Shown here one piece after another: positions 2,687-40,997 of a stretch of DNA of 64,000 nucleotides. The position numbers and the translations under genes are program-made. The stretch is from Candidatus Multivorans sp. (GTDB taxonomy: Bacteria > Acidobacteriota > Thermoanaerobaculia > Multivoradales > Multivoraceae). Numbering within the stretch: position 1 is the first letter of the stretch; every line of letters begins with the position of its first letter. The stretch is from assembly GCA_965247095.1 (NCBI GenBank), contig OZ251997.1, positions 1,280,001 through 1,344,000 on the forward strand, in the 5' to 3' direction. Under the pieces are notes generated by a model. It saw only the letters and a list, made by a program, of their open reading frames with translations. It had not been told where the DNA came from and ran no database searches.

Positions 2687-2765
2687 AGCGACCCTGCCAA
2701 TTGTTGACAAGCAGGAATCACGCGGCGCCGTCGTGGCTGTAGAAGGTCCAGGCGACCCCCAACGC

Positions 2766-3109
2766 CTACCGCCCGAGGACGATGTCGATACCGGCGAGGA
2801 AAAGGTCGATCTTCGCACGCGAAACCCGACCTACGGGCTGCTCGAGCAACGCTCGGTCCAGAGCATTGACTTGCGACACGTTAGCGACCGAGTCCTTCGG
2901 GAGATGCGTCATCCGCGCGGTGAGCAGTACGTGCCAGGTGCGTCGGCCCAGCGCAGATTGCTGGTCAGGGGCACGCAGACGACGGTAGCCAACCGGCTCC
3001 GGTTCAGGGCGTCACCCTGGACGACGATAACCGGTCGGCGAAACCCCGGCCCGGATCCCGTGGGCTCAGGCAGCTCAACCCAGCAGACGTCACCTTGGGC
3101 GATCACCAT
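2766..3109 (-). pseudogene. mazF: MazF/PemK endoribonuclease toxin, frameshifted by a 1-bp deletion at ~2932
   Basis: N-half GDVCWVELPEPTGSGPGFRRPVIVVQ...VPLTSNLRWADAPG; C-half VLLTARMTHLPKDSVANVSQVNALDRALL...IDIVLGR* in the next frame; GGC AC GTA lacks one A of AAC. Confidence 0.88.
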
Positions 3110-3336
3110 TCGGCACGATGCAGGGTGTGTCTTGCGGCGGCAGTGAGGAAGCCATCATCATCGCCTACATCGTCGCAAACGCGGTTCATCGTGTCCGTGA
3201 CTTCGTCGGGAGCATGGCGTGCGACGTATTCGTCGAGGGCGGCGGCATACACTTCGCTCCGCGACCGCCGGGCGCGTCTGGCTAGGCGCTCAGCCCGCGC
3301 GAAAAGCTCATCAGGGATCGAGATCGCAGTCTTCAT
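3103..3336 (-). CDS. Ribbon-helix-helix antitoxin (ChpI/MazE-like) of the MazF module
   Basis: MKTAISIPDELFARAERLARRARRSRSEVYAAALDEYV...AEW, overlapping the toxin start; TATACT (3343-3348) lies 6 nt before the ATG. Confidence 0.85.
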   Translation of the reverse strand: MKTAISIPDELFARAERLARRARRSRSEVYAAALDEYVARHAPDEVTDTMNRVCDDVGDDDGFLTAAARHTLHRAEW

Positions 3337-3361
3337 ACCGATAGTATAACCACGAGGCTGC

Positions 3362-3529
3362 CTAGCAGCCCGTGGTGGAAGTCCGTGTCGCACCGAGACC
3401 GGCGAGGCGCGCGTTCCAACAAGGCGCGACGAAGGAGCATATCGGGGCCATATTCGACTGAGGAGCAACGATGTTGGACGTGATGCATCGCCGGTCGAAT
3501 GCAGCGCGACTTTTTCAGCAAGCCCCTAG
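3362..3529. mobile_element. 168-bp MITE flanked by CTAG, sharing its left end with the IS at 6260
   Basis: First 22 nt CTAGCAGCCCGTGGTGGAAGTC identical to 6260-6281; right end GACTTTTTCAGCAAGCCCCTAG is a degenerate IR (13/22); no recognisable coding content. Confidence 0.8.
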
Positions 3530-3611
3530 GAGCACTCGCAACGATTTCGCTGCGCTGCCGCGCATGGAACACTGTAGGAGCGTGGTCGCTACTTAGGTCC
3601 GCCCTGGGAAC

Positions 3612-3679
3612 CCGTGTGGCGCGACCCGCGCCACACGCGAACCACTCCGTGCGCCCGTCATCGGGCGCACGGATGGCAC
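3612..3679. repeat. 68-bp double-hairpin element, copy A, inserted into a REP-like palindrome
   Basis: 11-bp stem CGTGTGGCGCG/CGCGCCACACG and 12-bp stem TCCGTGCGCCCG/CGGGCGCACGGA; homologous to 40488-40554; removal restores CTGGGAAC-GCGGGCGTCTCGCCCGC. Confidence 0.85.
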
Positions 3680-3734
3680 GCGGGCGTCTCGCCCGCATCC
3701 GGCACGAAGCGCCGGCCAGGACGAGGAGTTTGTT

Positions 3735-3905
3735 CCATGCAAGGCCGTCGCGGAGTTCGTGCAGGATGTTGTTCAGATACCGGCCCCGCCCGTCCATCGA
3801 GATCTTCACCTCTGCGTCCTTTTGAACGCCGCCGTGAACTTCCGGCGCTTCCTCATCCTGTACTCCTCCTCTCGGCTAAGCCCCGACTTGCAGGAAATCC
3901 AGGCA
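3735..3905 (-). pseudogene. Internally deleted IS3-family remnant
   Basis: GAGGAGG RBS and orfA start MRKRRKFTAAFK (ATG 3856) joined to orfB pieces KDAEVKISMDGRGRYLNNI and LHELRDGL. Confidence 0.75.
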
Positions 3906-3977
3906 CGAGTCGCGTTGGCGACGGCGAGGAAGTGGCCAGCGACGGCGGTTGAGTGACCGAGGTGCAGGGTGGTCCTT

Positions 3978-4105
3978 CCGGACACCGTCTATCTGACCTT
4001 CGACCTCGACTTCTTCGACCCGTCGCTGCTGCCCGCGACCGGGACGCCCGAACCCGGCGGCGGCAACTGGCGCCAGGCTCTGGCGCTGCTCCGCCTGCTG
4101 TTCGA
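3978..4105 (+). repeat. 128-bp duplicate of internal speB segment 2402-2529
   Basis: 123/128 identical; encodes PDTVYLTFDLDFFDPSLLPATGTPEPGGGNWRQALALLRLLFE. Confidence 0.95.
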
Positions 4106-4317
4106 ACGCCGGCCCCCTGACCGCCCAGGCGGCGGCCGTCCAGGTGGAGTTCGACTACCTGCGGCTCGGGATGGGCTATCTCGAACTGCCGCTATGGGAC
4201 GGTTCGGTGATCGAGGCCGAGAACGCCGTGTTCGAGGACCGCGGCGGCGGCAACTTCCTGTGGACCGGCGAGGTGCCGGGCGCCGGCTACGAGAGCGTCC
4301 TGTTCACGGTGCAGGAC

Positions 4318-5593
4318 CATTGCTGTCCCACAAACTTCAGAGTAGAGCGAGTTGAGTTCGCGTGTTGTTCGGGTCGGGTGGTCCGCTCGGAGGTTCGAAG
4401 AGGTCCAGCAGCGATCTTCGGTCGAACAGGTTGAGTTGCAGAAGGCGCAGGATCCGGCTCATGCTCCAGGACATCTTGTTGACGAACTTCAGGTAGGCGA
4501 GCAGGAGATGGACGCACACGGCGATCCAGATCTGCGTCATGACCGCGTTGGGCGAGGCGCCGACGAAACTCTTGATGCGCAGGTTCTGTTTGATCCACTT
4601 GAAGAAGAGCTCGACCTGCCAGCGCGCCTTGTAGATGTCCGCGATGGTCTTCGGGGCGAGGCTGAAGTTGTTGGTCAGGAACTTGTAGTGCCGGCCCGTC
4701 TCCGGGTCGCGATAGCCGACCCGACGCAACGGAATCGGGCACCGCTTGCGCCCCTTGACGCTGGTCAGCTCGATGGTCTGGTCCGACGTCACGCCCCGGC
4801 CGCGAGCGAACGAGCGCCGCTCCCGAACCGCGTACTTGACCTTGCGCTTCAGGCGGGTGACCAGGAAAACCCCTTGTGCATCAAGGTCCTTTAGCCATCC
4901 GAAGTCGAGGTACAGACGGTCCGCCGCCACGATGCTCCCCTTCGGAAGACGAAGCGACCGGGCCACCTCGAGGTCCGAGCCCTTGCCGTCGGTGACGTGC
5001 AGGAACGACGGCAGACAGCCCTCGTGGTCGAGACCCACGTGCAGCTTCAACGCCCCCTTGGTCTTGCGGTACCGCGCCCAGGGAAACACCTTCAGGCACA
5101 GGTCCACGTATGTGGCGTCGAGCGACAACAGCTTGTTCCGGAAACGGAACCCATGCCCCGGCGCCGCCGCCTGACAACGGCTCAGAAGGCGACCGAACAG
5201 CGCCTCGTACAGTTCGTGAGGCTGCTCTCTGTTCACCCGCGCCAGCGAAGATCGGGCTACCCGGCCAACGCCGAGATGGTACAGCTTGTGAGCCTGCGCA
5301 TCCAGGTTCGACACGATGTCTCGCAGACTGCGCCGCCCGGAAAGCTGCGCCATCGCCATCGCTACGAACTGGCCCCAGCGGCTCATCGAGCGCAGCTTGC
5401 GTCCCCTGTGATGCCGCCGGGCCTCCCGCTCGAACTCATGTCTCGACACCAGCTTGAGGAACTGGCCAAGTACGGTACTATTGTGCGCCATGGGTCTGGA
5501 TCTCCTTGCCGTCATTGGCTTTGCTTGAACACCAATCATACGACAAGGCACGGTTCAGACCCATCCTTCCTCCCCGTTTGTGGGACAGCACTG
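4318..5593 (-). mobile_element. Complete IS4-family insertion sequence (1276 bp)
   Basis: 18-bp TIRs CATTGCTGTCCCACAAAC / GTTTGTGGGACAGCACTG (17/18); 9-bp TSD GTGCAGGAC at 4309-4317 and 5594-5602. Confidence 0.95.
4337..5491 (-). CDS. IS4-family DDE transposase (DUF4372-type N-terminus)
   Basis: LDATYVDL, ADRLY, IYKARWQVELFFKWIKQNL (YREK signature); start MAHNSTVLGQ. Confidence 0.95.
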   Translation of the reverse strand: MAHNSTVLGQFLKLVSRHEFEREARRHHRGRKLRSMSRWGQFVAMAMAQLSGRRSLRDIVSNLDAQAHKLYHLGVGRVARSSLARVNREQPHELYEALFGRLLSRCQAAAPGHGFRFRNKLLSLDATYVDLCLKVFPWARYRKTKGALKLHVGLDHEGCLPSFLHVTDGKGSDLEVARSLRLPKGSIVAADRLYLDFGWLKDLDAQGVFLVTRLKRKVKYAVRERRSFARGRGVTSDQTIELTSVKGRKRCPIPLRRVGYRDPETGRHYKFLTNNFSLAPKTIADIYKARWQVELFFKWIKQNLRIKSFVGASPNAVMTQIWIAVCVHLLLAYLKFVNKMSWSMSRILRLLQLNLFDRRSLLDLFEPPSGPPDPNNTRTQLALL

Positions 5594-39028: not shown

Positions 39029-40576
39029 CTACGGCGTGCCGTCTCCGGTCGGTTCGAGATCCGCCGCCAGCCCGACCACCTCGTCGTACAGTTCGGAGCG
39101 CCGCCGGCGCAGGCGCTTCACCGTTCCGGTGCGCAGTCCCACCGTCCACAATGCCCGCAGACCGTGACCGAGCTCGGCGATCAGGCGGTGGTAGCGGAGG
39201 CCGAGCAGCGCCGACGCGGCGCACAGCCCGAGCATCCCGCCGACGCGCACCCACAGGGACTCGGGCACCCAGTCGAATCCCGGCAACGGCTCGGTCCAGG
39301 CGATACCGACCGCGAAGCTCGCGACGATCCACACCGTCGGCAGAATGACGAGACCGAGCACCATCTTGAGTCCCGCCTGCTCCTTCCTCGTCTTCGAGAG
39401 TCTCTTCGCGCCGAGCACCACCAGCAGCGCCGCCGGAAGGTTGATCAGGTTGCCGACCAGGACCACGGTGGGCAGGAGCAGCAGCATGACCAGCGCCTCG
39501 GCGCCGAGCAGGGCCAGGCGTAGCGCCGTCCGCGGCAGCGGTACGCCGTCCAGTTCGCGGTCGTTCAGGCCCAGGAGTCGCAGCGCCTCGTCGTACCGCG
39601 TCACCCTGCGCATGAGCCGCCTCGTCCCGTTCGGATCGACGGCGCGCCGGGTGCTGTAGCCGGCCCAGACACGGGCAAAACCCTCGTCCCGTTCCCGCAT
39701 CGGCGCCCGGCGCAGGCGCTCGCCCGCCCGAGCCGCGCCCTCGGCTCTCACCAGGGCCCGCACCCGCTCCATTGCCCGGTGAATGCCCCAGCTCTCGGTC
39801 GGGTGGGTGACCTCGATCAGTTGCTCTTCGATCACGCCGGTCAGCCGATCGACGAACGTGTCGGTAGCCGCCCCACCGGCGTCCGACTCCGGTACGCCAC
39901 CGTCGCCGCCGCCGAGATCGGCTGGCAGCTCGACAGGCGCGTGGAAGGCCACCAGAGCCCGGGAGCGAAACGCGTGCTTCCGCTCGTAGTGCAGCCCAAC
40001 CGGCACCAGCGCCGGATCGCCTCCACTCTCCCGGGCCAGTTGGAACAGGCGCGCCGCTCCGGCCCGCAACTCAAGCAGGTTCGGCTCGTCGTGCGTGGCG
40101 CCCTCCGGAAAGATGGCGACGAAGGAGTGCCGCGCCGCCTCGGCAAGGGCAGTAAGACTCCGGTGGTTCGCCTCCCGGCGTTCGCGGTCGCTCACGGGGG
40201 CGCCCGCCTCGCCGCGATCCCGAGCCCGGTAGAGCGGCACGGCGCCGACGCCGCGCAGCAGCCAACCCACCACGGGAATGCGGAACAGACCGTGACGGGC
40301 CCCGAAGGTCACCGACCGGGGACAGAACCCGAGGACCAGGACGCCGTCGGCAAGTCCGTTCGGATGCCAAGCGACGAGCAGGCCGCCGCTGTCGTGCGGC
40401 ACGTTCTCAGAGCCGACCACTTCGACGCTGCGGAAGAACAGCCTCGCCAGCAAACGCAGAAAGTGAGTCAGGCAACGCTTCCTGAACCCGGGTGGCGCGT
40501 TCCGCGCCACCCGTGAACCATCCGTACGCCCGTCATCGGGCGTACGGATGACACCCGGTGGATCGACGCAATTCAT
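39029..40576 (-). CDS. Glycerol-3-phosphate/lysophospholipid acyltransferase family membrane protein (start uncertain)
   Basis: WHPNGLAD (HxxxxD-like), PLYR, IFPEG, VPVGLHY motifs, C-terminal TM helices. Confidence 0.85.
   Translation of the reverse strand: MNCVDPPGVIRTPDDGRTDGSRVARNAPPGFRKRCLTHFLRLLARLFFRSVEVVGSENVPHDSGGLLVAWHPNGLADGVLVLGFCPRSVTFGARHGLFRIPVVGWLLRGVGAVPLYRARDRGEAGAPVSDRERREANHRSLTALAEAARHSFVAIFPEGATHDEPNLLELRAGAARLFQLARESGGDPALVPVGLHYERKHAFRSRALVAFHAPVELPADLGGGDGGVPESDAGGAATDTFVDRLTGVIEEQLIEVTHPTESWGIHRAMERVRALVRAEGAARAGERLRRAPMRERDEGFARVWAGYSTRRAVDPNGTRRLMRRVTRYDEALRLLGLNDRELDGVPLPRTALRLALLGAEALVMLLLLPTVVLVGNLINLPAALLVVLGAKRLSKTRKEQAGLKMVLGLVILPTVWIVASFAVGIAWTEPLPGFDWVPESLWVRVGGMLGLCAASALLGLRYHRLIAELGHGLRALWTVGLRTGTVKRLRRRRSELYDEVVGLAADLEPTGDGTP
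40488..40554. repeat. 67-bp double-hairpin element, copy B
   Basis: Stems CGGGTGGCGCG/CGCGCCACCCG and TCCGTACGCCCG/CGGGCGTACGGA; homologous to 3612-3679. Confidence 0.85.
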
Positions 40577-40633
40577 CGACGCAGGTACATCGACGCAATT
40601 GTACGCCACCGGAGACTCCCGGTTCGCCGCAAC

Positions 40634-40681
40634 CGTCCGACCGGTCGGACGCTTGACAAGCCCCGTTTCCACCCCTACCGT
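40634..40681 (+). promoter_or_regulatory. 18-bp perfect palindrome abutting a sigma70-type promoter
   Basis: CGTCCGACCGGTCGGACG (40634-40651); TTGACA (40653)-17 nt-TACCGT (40676). Confidence 0.65.
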
Positions 40682-40711
40682 GGCTTCACCGATGCAAGAC
40701 AAGGAGGCGCC

Positions 40712-40801
40712 ATGACACCGCCGGGCCATCTCCCGCCCCCGGCCCGCCTGAGGCAAAACGCTCAGGGCGCCAAGCCGGGGGCCGCCAAGTCCGCAGCCTG
40801 A
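40712..40801 (+). CDS. Putative 29-aa small ORF
   Basis: AAGGAGG at 40701-40707 then ATG; MTPPGHLPPPARLRQNAQGAKPGAAKSAA*. Confidence 0.35.
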   Translation: MTPPGHLPPPARLRQNAQGAKPGAAKSAA

Positions 40802-40967
40802 GTGGACGAATGACATCCGGCCGCTCGACCGTCGCCTGAATCGCCTGAGCGTCCATCGGATCAGTTGATCTGAATCGGACCGCGCCGAGGCCAACGAGAA
40901 CGAGTCGAGGCCCAGCGGGCGCCCAACGCCCACCGCGAAAACGCATCCATCCAGGCCGGGGACACAC

Positions 40968-40997
40968 TGAGAGCGCAGGTTCATACCTGCGCTCTCA
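40968..40997 (+). terminator. Perfect 13-bp hairpin, terminator-like
   Basis: TGAGAGCGCAGGT-TCAT-ACCTGCGCTCTCA followed by TTGCGTTT. Confidence 0.55.

Follow-up and report, generated by a model that had tools for sequence, protein, structure and literature searches.

The window, by which we mean the whole stretch of 64,000 nucleotides analysed here, carries two copies of a short mobile repeat. This repeat, unit C, is 67-69 nt long and consists of two differing hairpins arranged head-to-tail on one strand, with GAAC before each of them. Its mobility is well supported by loci that contain the unit in one genome and lack it in another. From the comparison of sequences we somewhat favour the view that unit C is a non-autonomous element of the REP type, which would move as single-stranded DNA (ssDNA) with the help, in trans, of an enzyme of the REP-associated tyrosine transposase (RAYT) type. 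The assignment to a particular enzyme is not well supported, because unit C is far more widespread than the RAYT encoded in the genome to which the window belongs (G000).

Two copies of unit C in the window

The positions of the two copies, A and B, and of the structures within and next to them are given in Table 1. The ends of both copies can be written in two ways, 2 nt apart, because AC stands on both sides. Copy A was matched by nhmmer at 3609-3679 (71.1 bits) and by a covariance model (CM) built from 11 copies of the unit at 3606-3682 (103.1 bits); the CM match of copy B spans 40482-40557 (91.0 bits).

Table 1. Features of the two copies of unit C and the adjoining repeats, in positions of the window
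Feature	Positions	Strand	Description	Basis
Unit C, copy A	3610..3677 (= 3612-3679)	+	68 nt	sequence
Hairpin 1, copy A	3613..3637	+	11-bp stem, 3-nt loop	fold and pair table
Hairpin 2, copy A	3642..3676	+	stem of 3 + 12 bp, one bulge, 4-nt loop TCAT	fold and pair table
R3 repeat at copy A	3678..3703	+	hairpin 3680-3696 and conserved ATCCGG tail	R3 nhmmer, fold, consensus
Fourth small palindrome (R4)	3699..3715	.	after R3 in many composites	module map, flank consensus
Unit C, copy B	40486..40552 (= 40488-40554)	+	67 nt	sequence
Hairpin 1, copy B	40489..40513	+		fold
Hairpin 2, copy B	40519..40550	+	14-bp stem	fold

In a hand alignment, the two copies differ by one 1-nt indel and 8 substitutions, of which four are in the stems. 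These four affect two base pairs and compensate each other, T-A being exchanged for G-C in hairpin 1, and G-C for A-T in hairpin 2. All other differences are located in the tail, the linker and the first loop. Each hairpin of both copies has GAACC on its 5' side, and terminal inverted repeats are absent. All these features had been described in a sequence-only reading of the window and are borne out here. Folded as ssDNA, the segment 3604-3697 (+) has an energy of -46.0 kcal/mol, compared with -24.5 +/- 2.6 for its shuffles (z = -8.2), and the segment 40480-40570 (+) one of -36.5 kcal/mol (z = -7.3); in both cases none of 200 shuffles was as good. The minus strands of both copies fold equally well.

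Copy A belongs to a composite of the C>R3>R4 type and separates the R3 hairpin from CCTGGGA (3603-3609), the conserved 5' flank of R3. Its insertion point is GGGA^AC of the R3 repeat, the junction being inferred from the short and long forms of a MITE and from orthologous pairs (see below). The REP-like palindrome that, according to the sequence-only reading, is restored when copy A is taken out is thus this R3 repeat, of which nhmmer found 247 copies in G000. No empty orthologue of the copy A site was seen among five genomes, where synteny is limited to 2753-3358 (in G016) and the sequence beyond approximately 3360 matches solely as dispersed repeats.

Copy B is a solo copy. An acyltransferase ORF of the minus strand, recognized from the translation and Pfam, either begins just beyond this copy or includes it in frame at its 5' end, and there is a possible GTG start codon within hairpin 1. 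Copy B has orthologous counterparts in G016, G012 and G019, as seen in alignments, and in G024, as seen from a spanning BLAST match. The orthologous versions retain subfamily-specific changes; one of them has a one-sided change (G012) and another a compensatory replacement of C-G by G-C (G019). The corresponding region of G001 is diverged and offers no clean empty site. Among the assembled contigs of sequencing runs, neither a circular junction nor an excision allele of copy A or B was seen. One contig of run X1 joins 3608 to 3678, skipping 69 letters and carrying 2 other letters at the join (depth 289; side 30); most likely it stems from other R3 copies without unit C, rather than from excision at copy A.

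Copy number and distribution

Genome G000 is a single contig of 4,617,209 bp with a GC content of 67.7%. An nhmmer search iterated to convergence (E <= 1e-3) identified 171 copies of unit C in it, of which 139 are full length. With copy A as the query, blastn-short returned more than 100 matches in this genome, 13 of them identical across 74 nt. The same 74-nt query matched 21 of 24 sampled genomes of the same genus and not one among 16 genomes representing other families of the same order, and there was no match in a plasmid collection or in a phage collection. The numbers of candidates per genome were 163 in G000, 159 in G024 and 94 in G012, and the CM gave 99 strong matches from the window and 80 loci of other genomes. 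The contigs bearing unit C come from MAGs of 'Candidatus Multivorans' / Thermoanaerobaculia (Acidobacteriota), an uncultured lineage, on whose repeats a literature search found nothing relevant. A search of Rfam with a permissive E-value yielded 13 matches with E <= 10, all far below the gathering thresholds, the best being RF01521 (score 23.5 bits, threshold 50).

Covariation and constraint in the stems

The covariation seen between copies A and B extends to the whole family. In an alignment of 124 distinct copies from G000, with 27 base pairs, 95.8% of the cells are paired, and double-sided changes occur in 18 of the 27 pairs (107 cells), compared with an average of 5.5 pairs and 13.6 cells in column shuffles; none of 500 shuffles reached the observed values. 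A cross-genome CM alignment, A4 (99 matches, 90 distinct rows), is paired in 97.8% of cells and has double changes in 12 of 26 pairs, again reached by none of 500 shuffles, and slid controls were all far lower. A4 was fitted to the CM, and the choice of its loci by an exact hairpin-2 pattern damps variation in that hairpin. On the GAAC strand, G.T wobbles outnumber A.C mismatches both in G000 (62 to 42) and in A4 (40 to 18). This excess, drawn from copies that are not mutually independent, is a modest hint that the GAAC strand may be the one that folds.

Constraint is also visible at sites retained between genomes. At 10 orthologous filled sites, unit C differs at 2.5% of positions (18 of 710), compared with 8.3% in the 350-nt flanks, and within the unit the paired columns differ at 1.7% and the unpaired ones at 5.3%. 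For this sample of 10 sites, gene conversion among copies could be an alternative source of the low divergence.

Mobility and insertion junctions

The junctions of unit C can be read at several kinds of sites. The short (15 copies) and long (14 copies) forms of an inverted-repeat MITE in G000 differ solely by a 68-nt block at GGGAAC^GCGGGC. For a comparison between genomes, 106 copies with 350-nt flanks were taken from 103 loci outside G000, and for 86 copies G000 has matches to both flanks on a single strand. Eleven pairs, corresponding to 10 sites of G000, are filled in both genomes. We aligned 27 candidates for sites empty in G000, most of which turned out to be larger or messy indels; readable junctions were limited to L126, L051, L058, L097/L082 and L039. 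At L126, a MITE copy that contains the unit in another genome lacks it in G000; L051 and L058 are R3 repeats with unit C elsewhere and without it in G000; L097/L082 and L039 are insertions into unique DNA that is empty in G000.

In all these cases unit C was inserted as a precise block, with neither target duplication nor inverted ends. The filled and empty alleles support the earlier description of AC at both junctions and of a GAAC-type target beside a REP-like palindrome. Some non-canonical sites have AG or GC instead of AC as the right flank, and the insertion is therefore, in its simplest form, that of ACCCGGG...GGATGGC at GA^AC, GA^AG or GA^GC. In agreement with these limits, conservation among 56 solo copies begins at (G)AAC and ends after GGCAC, and the flanks beyond are unrelated. 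The preferred sites are the foot or the loop of resident palindromic repeats, namely R3 in G000 and GCCGGCC-AGAA-GGCCGGC in relatives. The orientation of copies relative to the replichores, which were defined by GC skew, is mildly or weakly biased (100:71 for unit C, 158:89 for R3 and 36:29 for solo copies of unit C). Together with the 171 genomic copies and the covariation, the filled and empty alleles support the proposal of a structure-constrained, non-autonomous mobile unit; the CM search and the check for empty sites suggested along with it yielded many copies, strong covariation and clean empty alleles.

A mosaic of repeats

Unit C is part of a mosaic of palindromic repeats. The consensus of its most frequent neighbour, R3, is CCTGGGAAC-GCGGGCGTCTCGCCCGC-ATCCGG. 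Among 307 repeat clusters of G000 we counted 108 with solo R3, 65 with solo C, 29 of the type C>R3> and 13 of the type C>R3>R4, as well as 15 copies of the short MITE with inverted ends (T>R3>R4 T<) and 14 of the long one (T>C>R3>R4 T<). A co-oriented R3 stands directly 3' of 71 of the 171 copies of unit C and 5' of only five, and tandem or mosaic arrays of repeats, including unit C, are present. Searches for an autonomous partner of the MITE found pairs of its ends 0.4-5 kb apart in no recurring size.

A strict R3 pattern matched 128 times in G000, 92 times in G016 and 125 times in G024, and 0-4 times in each of the other 38 genomes. In other genomes unit C often occupies the loop of a different repeat, GCCGGCC-AGAA-GGCCGGC-GCACC, which is the flanking repeat of RAYT genes in those species.

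Copies within genes

Coding-like frames on both sides were found for 11 of the 171 copies of unit C (approximately 6%) and for 22 of the 247 copies of R3. Nine of the 11 intragenic matches of unit C, two of which overlap at one locus, have the orientation of the gene. Five hosts were scanned with Pfam and proved to be ORFs for GyrA, an Lhr helicase, a prolyl oligopeptidase, an MmeI/Eco57I-type (type IIG-like) methylase and an amidase. The intragenic copies that were checked are mostly compatible with a multiple of three nucleotides, HMM spans of 72 nt corresponding to inserts of 69 nt. The translated insertion in gyrA reads ...PGWRESAPPANQSERSSSSARMEP... and has a 15-nt internal duplication in G000. 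It is present in three of 41 genomes (G000, G024 and, with decayed hairpins, G001); of 17 genomes aligned at the DNA level, 14 lack it, among them G016.

Behind the 3' ends of genes, 48 copies have the same orientation as the gene and 35 the opposite one; these context counts are rough, because the gene calls, which cover 70% of the genome, come from a crude GC3 filter. Unit C also occurs in divergent promoter regions and in other repeats. Short C-like contigs were present in metatranscriptome run X16, which does not show transcription.

A candidate RAYT and its flanking repeats

The sequence-only reading placed the recombinase outside the window, and indeed the single Y1_Tnp match in G000, an ORF of 214 aa at G000:C1:2898169-2898813 (-), is 1.6 Mb away from the copies in the window and is flanked by unit C. 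The protein scores 79.8 bits with NCBIfam REP_Tyr_transpos (cut-off 80) and 33.7 bits with Pfam Y1_Tnp (cut-off 23). Its best match in PDB is TnpA-REP of E. coli (4er8), with which the HUH histidines, the catalytic tyrosine and one metal-ligand asparagine align (H59/H61, Y115 and N119, respectively, residue roles as described in parts of PMC3479197), and it has alanine at the equivalent of His123 of 4er8.

The gene lies between two inverted arrays, C>3>3>3> and 3<3<C<3<3< (3, R3). In G016, a 99%-identical RAYT gene is located between seven and eight tandem R3 repeats, with one copy of unit C on one side only, and the RAYT segment is inverted relative to the neighbouring gene. G024 lacks the RAYT and differs in the region upstream of the neighbouring gene, so that two of the three R3-rich genomes carry the enzyme. 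The expansion of R3 in G000, G016 and G024 only, and the arrays at the RAYT, make R3 the likely cognate repeat of this enzyme, better supported in that role than unit C.

The phylogenetic distributions of unit C and of the enzyme differ. Among the 24 other genomes of the same genus, the RAYT of the G000 type (P0001) was found in one (G016), any Y1 gene in 16 and unit C in 21. Six genomes have unit C without any Y1_Tnp match (G003, G006, G007, G013, G019 and G024), and one, G014, has a Y1 gene and no unit C. The RAYTs of other species, approximately 51% identical to that of G000, are flanked by different repeats, and one copy of unit C was near the gene in one of 10 loci. Longer versions of unit C with the same ends around a transposase gene, a search suggested by the sequence-only reading, were not found in G000: HMMs of the half-units detected only 13 and 5 fragments, none of them paired around a gene.

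How unit C may move

If unit C is a REP-type element mobilized by a RAYT, it would move as ssDNA by the 'peel-and-paste' reaction of HUH/Y1 enzymes, catalysed in trans either by the RAYT of G000, which is the candidate enzyme, or by related ones. Its hairpins would be recognition elements of the enzyme, which would account for the covariation of the stems. Some copies are passive passengers in the larger inverted-repeat MITE. Of the enzyme families named in the sequence-only reading, HUH enzymes are the best fit, and IS110 fits poorly, as detailed below; a search for IS91/Y2 genes gave no match, its control also being silent in every genome.

We regard as unlikely the further-reaching idea that unit C is a minimal, enzyme-less 68-nt 'parasite of parasites', homing to the cleavage sites of resident REPs through the borrowed, bound RAYT. 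In G000 the target would be GA^AC at the R3 foot, and in sister species the loop of the unrelated GCCGGCC-type REP; one element would be serviced by RAYTs only approximately 50% identical; and some copies would later have come under structural selection in situ, as suggested by their slow evolution and the compensatory change at orthologous sites. If this were true, the natural filled and empty alleles would provide the first nucleotide-exact view of the insertion of REP-type DNA.

Two other explanations concern the way in which copies of unit C arise. It is quite improbable that an IS110-family (DEDD, bridge-RNA) recombinase moves the unit in trans, with AC as a 2-nt core and the REP-like palindromes as the programmed target. 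IS110 elements are known to target REPs; the absence of target duplication and AC at both junctions agree with such an enzyme, three IS110-family genes are present in G000, and RAYT-less genomes bearing unit C have IS110 matches (32 in the C-rich G024, eight in G019 and two in G003). The 0-4 matches of unit C in genomes with neither Y1 nor IS110 (G006, G007, G011 and G022) fit either enzyme. IS110 genes were found in 11 of the 24 genomes of the genus. However, 10 of the 21 sampled genomes bearing unit C, including G012 with its 94 candidates, have no PF01548 match. The ends of the two-copy IS110 element of G000, to which this comparison applies (a third, single-copy IS110 could not be delimited), are unrelated to unit C, the left one beginning with GGGATTGTTCCATGCAAG and the right one reading GCCGCCTGAA. 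The right flanks AG and GC at non-canonical sites mean that AC is not a strict shared core, and unit C has too little room for a bridge RNA. There is a similarly small chance that most copies are passengers of multiplying composite repeats, i.e. of the inverted-repeat MITE and of REPs with unit C in the loop, supplemented by tandem slippage. The 13 copies with 74-nt identity belong mostly, by eye, to the long MITE, which has 14 copies, tandem arrays exist, and among 98 distinct contexts in other genomes approximately 48 are adjacent to R3 (scripted count), approximately 30 are nested in the GCCGGCC-type hairpin (by eye; 10 with a regular expression) and two more contexts recur. A passenger origin contributes to the copy number; as the sole explanation it is ruled out by the pairs filled and empty in situ, such as the MITE copy at L126 and the R3 sites at L051 and L058, and it is contradicted by insertions into unique sequence, including gyrA, and by the 65 solo copies with unrelated flanks.

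It is rather unlikely that unit C is mainly a structured element used by the host, for example as a hairpin module in RNA or as a DNA structure bound by protein, with selection acting on its stems and mobility explaining its arrival only. The slow divergence of orthologous copies, particularly in paired columns, would be expected in this case, as would the retention of copy B in four genomes with a compensatory change in one of them; the wobble asymmetry in favour of one strand points in the same direction, and so do the short metatranscriptome contigs, though these do not demonstrate transcription. The copies behind 3' ends of genes have no orientation preference, other copies are situated in divergent promoters, genes and other repeats, the hairpins of the gyrA copy of G001 have decayed, no Rfam family reached its threshold, and the low divergence, being based on 10 sites, could result from gene conversion, all of which argues against a host function. 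Movement of a REP-type element by a RAYT-type enzyme is the reading that we retain as the most probable one, with odds that we put near even.

To our knowledge, the movement of REP-type repeats in the cell is a long-standing open point, and natural insertion junctions are rarely clear. In the family described here, clean filled and empty alleles are numerous, the unit is small, its junction is defined (GA^AC without duplication) and there is a single candidate enzyme; a direct biochemical test is therefore easy to design. The family extends biology of the REP/RAYT type to an uncultured acidobacterial lineage, and it exemplifies the use of other repeat families as landing sites by one repeat family and the toleration of in-frame insertions in essential genes such as gyrA.

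Comparison with known systems

Several known types of repeats share features with unit C. Classical MITEs moved by DDE transposases differ from it, as unit C has neither terminal inverted repeats nor target-site duplications. Like IS110/IS1111 elements, it enters REP-like palindromes site-specifically, without target duplication and with a 2-nt overlap at the junctions, but it encodes nothing, its ends are unlike those of the resident IS110, and the two co-occur poorly. The Rickettsia palindromic elements (RPE) are likewise in-frame palindromic repeats in protein genes, including genes of DNA metabolism; unit C differs from them in sequence and tag, and only the small fraction of its copies given above is intragenic.

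The palindrome-associated transposable elements (PATEs) are non-autonomous derivatives of IS200/IS605, presumed to be moved by a Y1 transposase in trans. They share with unit C the same-strand hairpins near both ends and the lack of inverted ends, and both PATEs and IS200/IS605-type elements share with it the precise insertion beside a short specific sequence without target duplication. Unit C is far smaller (68 nt) than PATEs, no full-length IS with both of its ends was found in G000, and its replication-strand bias is weak.

The closest likeness is to the REP/RAYT system (REPtron) of E. coli and Pseudomonas. Common features are short GC-rich hairpins in hundreds of copies, mostly intergenic, a conserved tetranucleotide beside each hairpin, mosaic arrays, and a single-copy Y1/HUH gene flanked by repeats in inverted orientation, which in G000 are unit C and R3. 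Unit C and REPs also share the occasional location within genes and the insertion into small palindromes, passages of PMC3733652 describing REPs at both kinds of sites. RAYTs cleave and rejoin REP DNA in vitro, recognizing the tag and the hairpin, and the tag can guide the choice of the cleavage site as in IS200/IS605, according to parts of PMC8266576. The REPs treated in the same passages of PMC3733652 have GTAG or CGTC tags and form mostly inverted dimers, head-to-tail dimers being absent or rare in most families. Unit C, in contrast, has the tag GAAC and neither GTAG nor CGTC at either end; unlike in a REPIN, its two hairpins differ from each other and follow head-to-tail instead of being an inverted pair that forms one long hairpin. 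Its distribution follows no single RAYT lineage, and its host is an uncultured lineage of Thermoanaerobaculia. The impression of an undescribed unit given by the sequence-only reading therefore holds insofar as no Rfam family matches it, but not for its kind: unit C differs from described systems in its tag, its head-to-tail heterodimer architecture, its host lineage and its lack of a one-to-one RAYT partner, and in kind it belongs to the known REP/RAYT systems.

Copies of C within genes

In the genome from which the window comes (G000, a single contig, C1), the mobile two-hairpin repeat C (67-69 nt) is translated in frame in long genes at five loci (Table). The copy in gyrA is common to G000 and only two other genomes of the genus, G024 and G001, with a 15-nt internal duplication being extra in the G000 version. 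Copy B, one of the two copies of C in the window (40486-40552), lies in the reading frame of an acyltransferase ORF (window 39029-40984, minus strand), at its 5' end, and hairpin 1 of this copy contains a possible GTG start. Copy B may provide the ORF with a start codon, a leader or an N-terminal extension.

Table. Locations of in-frame C copies, features around copy A and other mobile elements
Feature	Location	Strand
C in gyrA	G000:C1:3294612-3294683	
C in Lhr helicase gene	G000:C1, 2039799	
C in prolyl oligopeptidase gene	G000:C1, 3203866	
C in MmeI-type methylase gene	G000:C1, 540017	
C in amidase gene	G000:C1, 2537279	
VapB/RHH-like ORF (weak)	window 3103-3468	-
Arginase-family gene fragment	window 3969-4355	+
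IS4-type DDE transposase with DUF4372 domain	window 4337-5551	-
IS110-family element (1.6 kb), two copies	G000:C1:4033500-4035107 and 1057380-1058987	
Short-form MITE	G000:C1, e.g. 81184, 563757, 1350974	
Long-form MITE	G000:C1, e.g. 215023, 861114, 2892140	

Other repeats and mobile elements

The second window copy, copy A, is surrounded by a decayed patch with three features (Table). The region to its left (window 3340-3609) is repetitive: it has a second copy in G000 at about 1,046,000, shows very high summed contig depth in metagenome runs and contains a CTGCGC...GCGCAG palindrome followed by GGAAC. A short distance to the right of copy A (window 3729-3745) lies the motif TTGTTCCATGCAAG, which is also present at some MITE ends, at the start of the two-copy IS110-family element and again about 38 nt downstream of the end of this element. 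The motif probably represents another repeat family used as a target by the IS110-family element.

The MITE has inverted ends (GCGCGGCAGAAC / GTTCTGCCGCGC) and a size of about 100 or 170 bp, with 15 short and 14 long copies in G000. It carries the REP-like palindromic repeat R3 together with the small palindrome R4, and C is present in some copies and missing from others. CTAG or TAG usually borders the element, frequently at the stop codon of a gene. End pairs 0.4-5 kb apart in G000 revealed no autonomous partner of a size that recurs.

GC skew and the RAYT locus

GC skew along the whole G000 contig reverses near 1.1 Mb and again near 2.5 Mb, and the two replichores so defined differ greatly in length (about 1.4 and 3.2 Mb). 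The imbalance is either genuine or was produced by assembly or rearrangement.

In G000 (L001/L005) and another genome of the genus, G016 (L006, L027, L029), the gene for the REP-associated tyrosine transposase (RAYT) and the inverted repeat arrays around it stand in opposite orientations with respect to the neighbouring gene. Recombination between the inverted flanks would be expected to produce such a flip. In G024 the RAYT gene is absent, and the shared neighbour gene has a different upstream region. Long inverted structures also flank the RAYT genes of sister species (about 51% identical; L007, L009, L010, L013-L016). These are built from GGTGCGCCGGCC...GGCCGGC hairpins and represent a REPIN-like family of their own.
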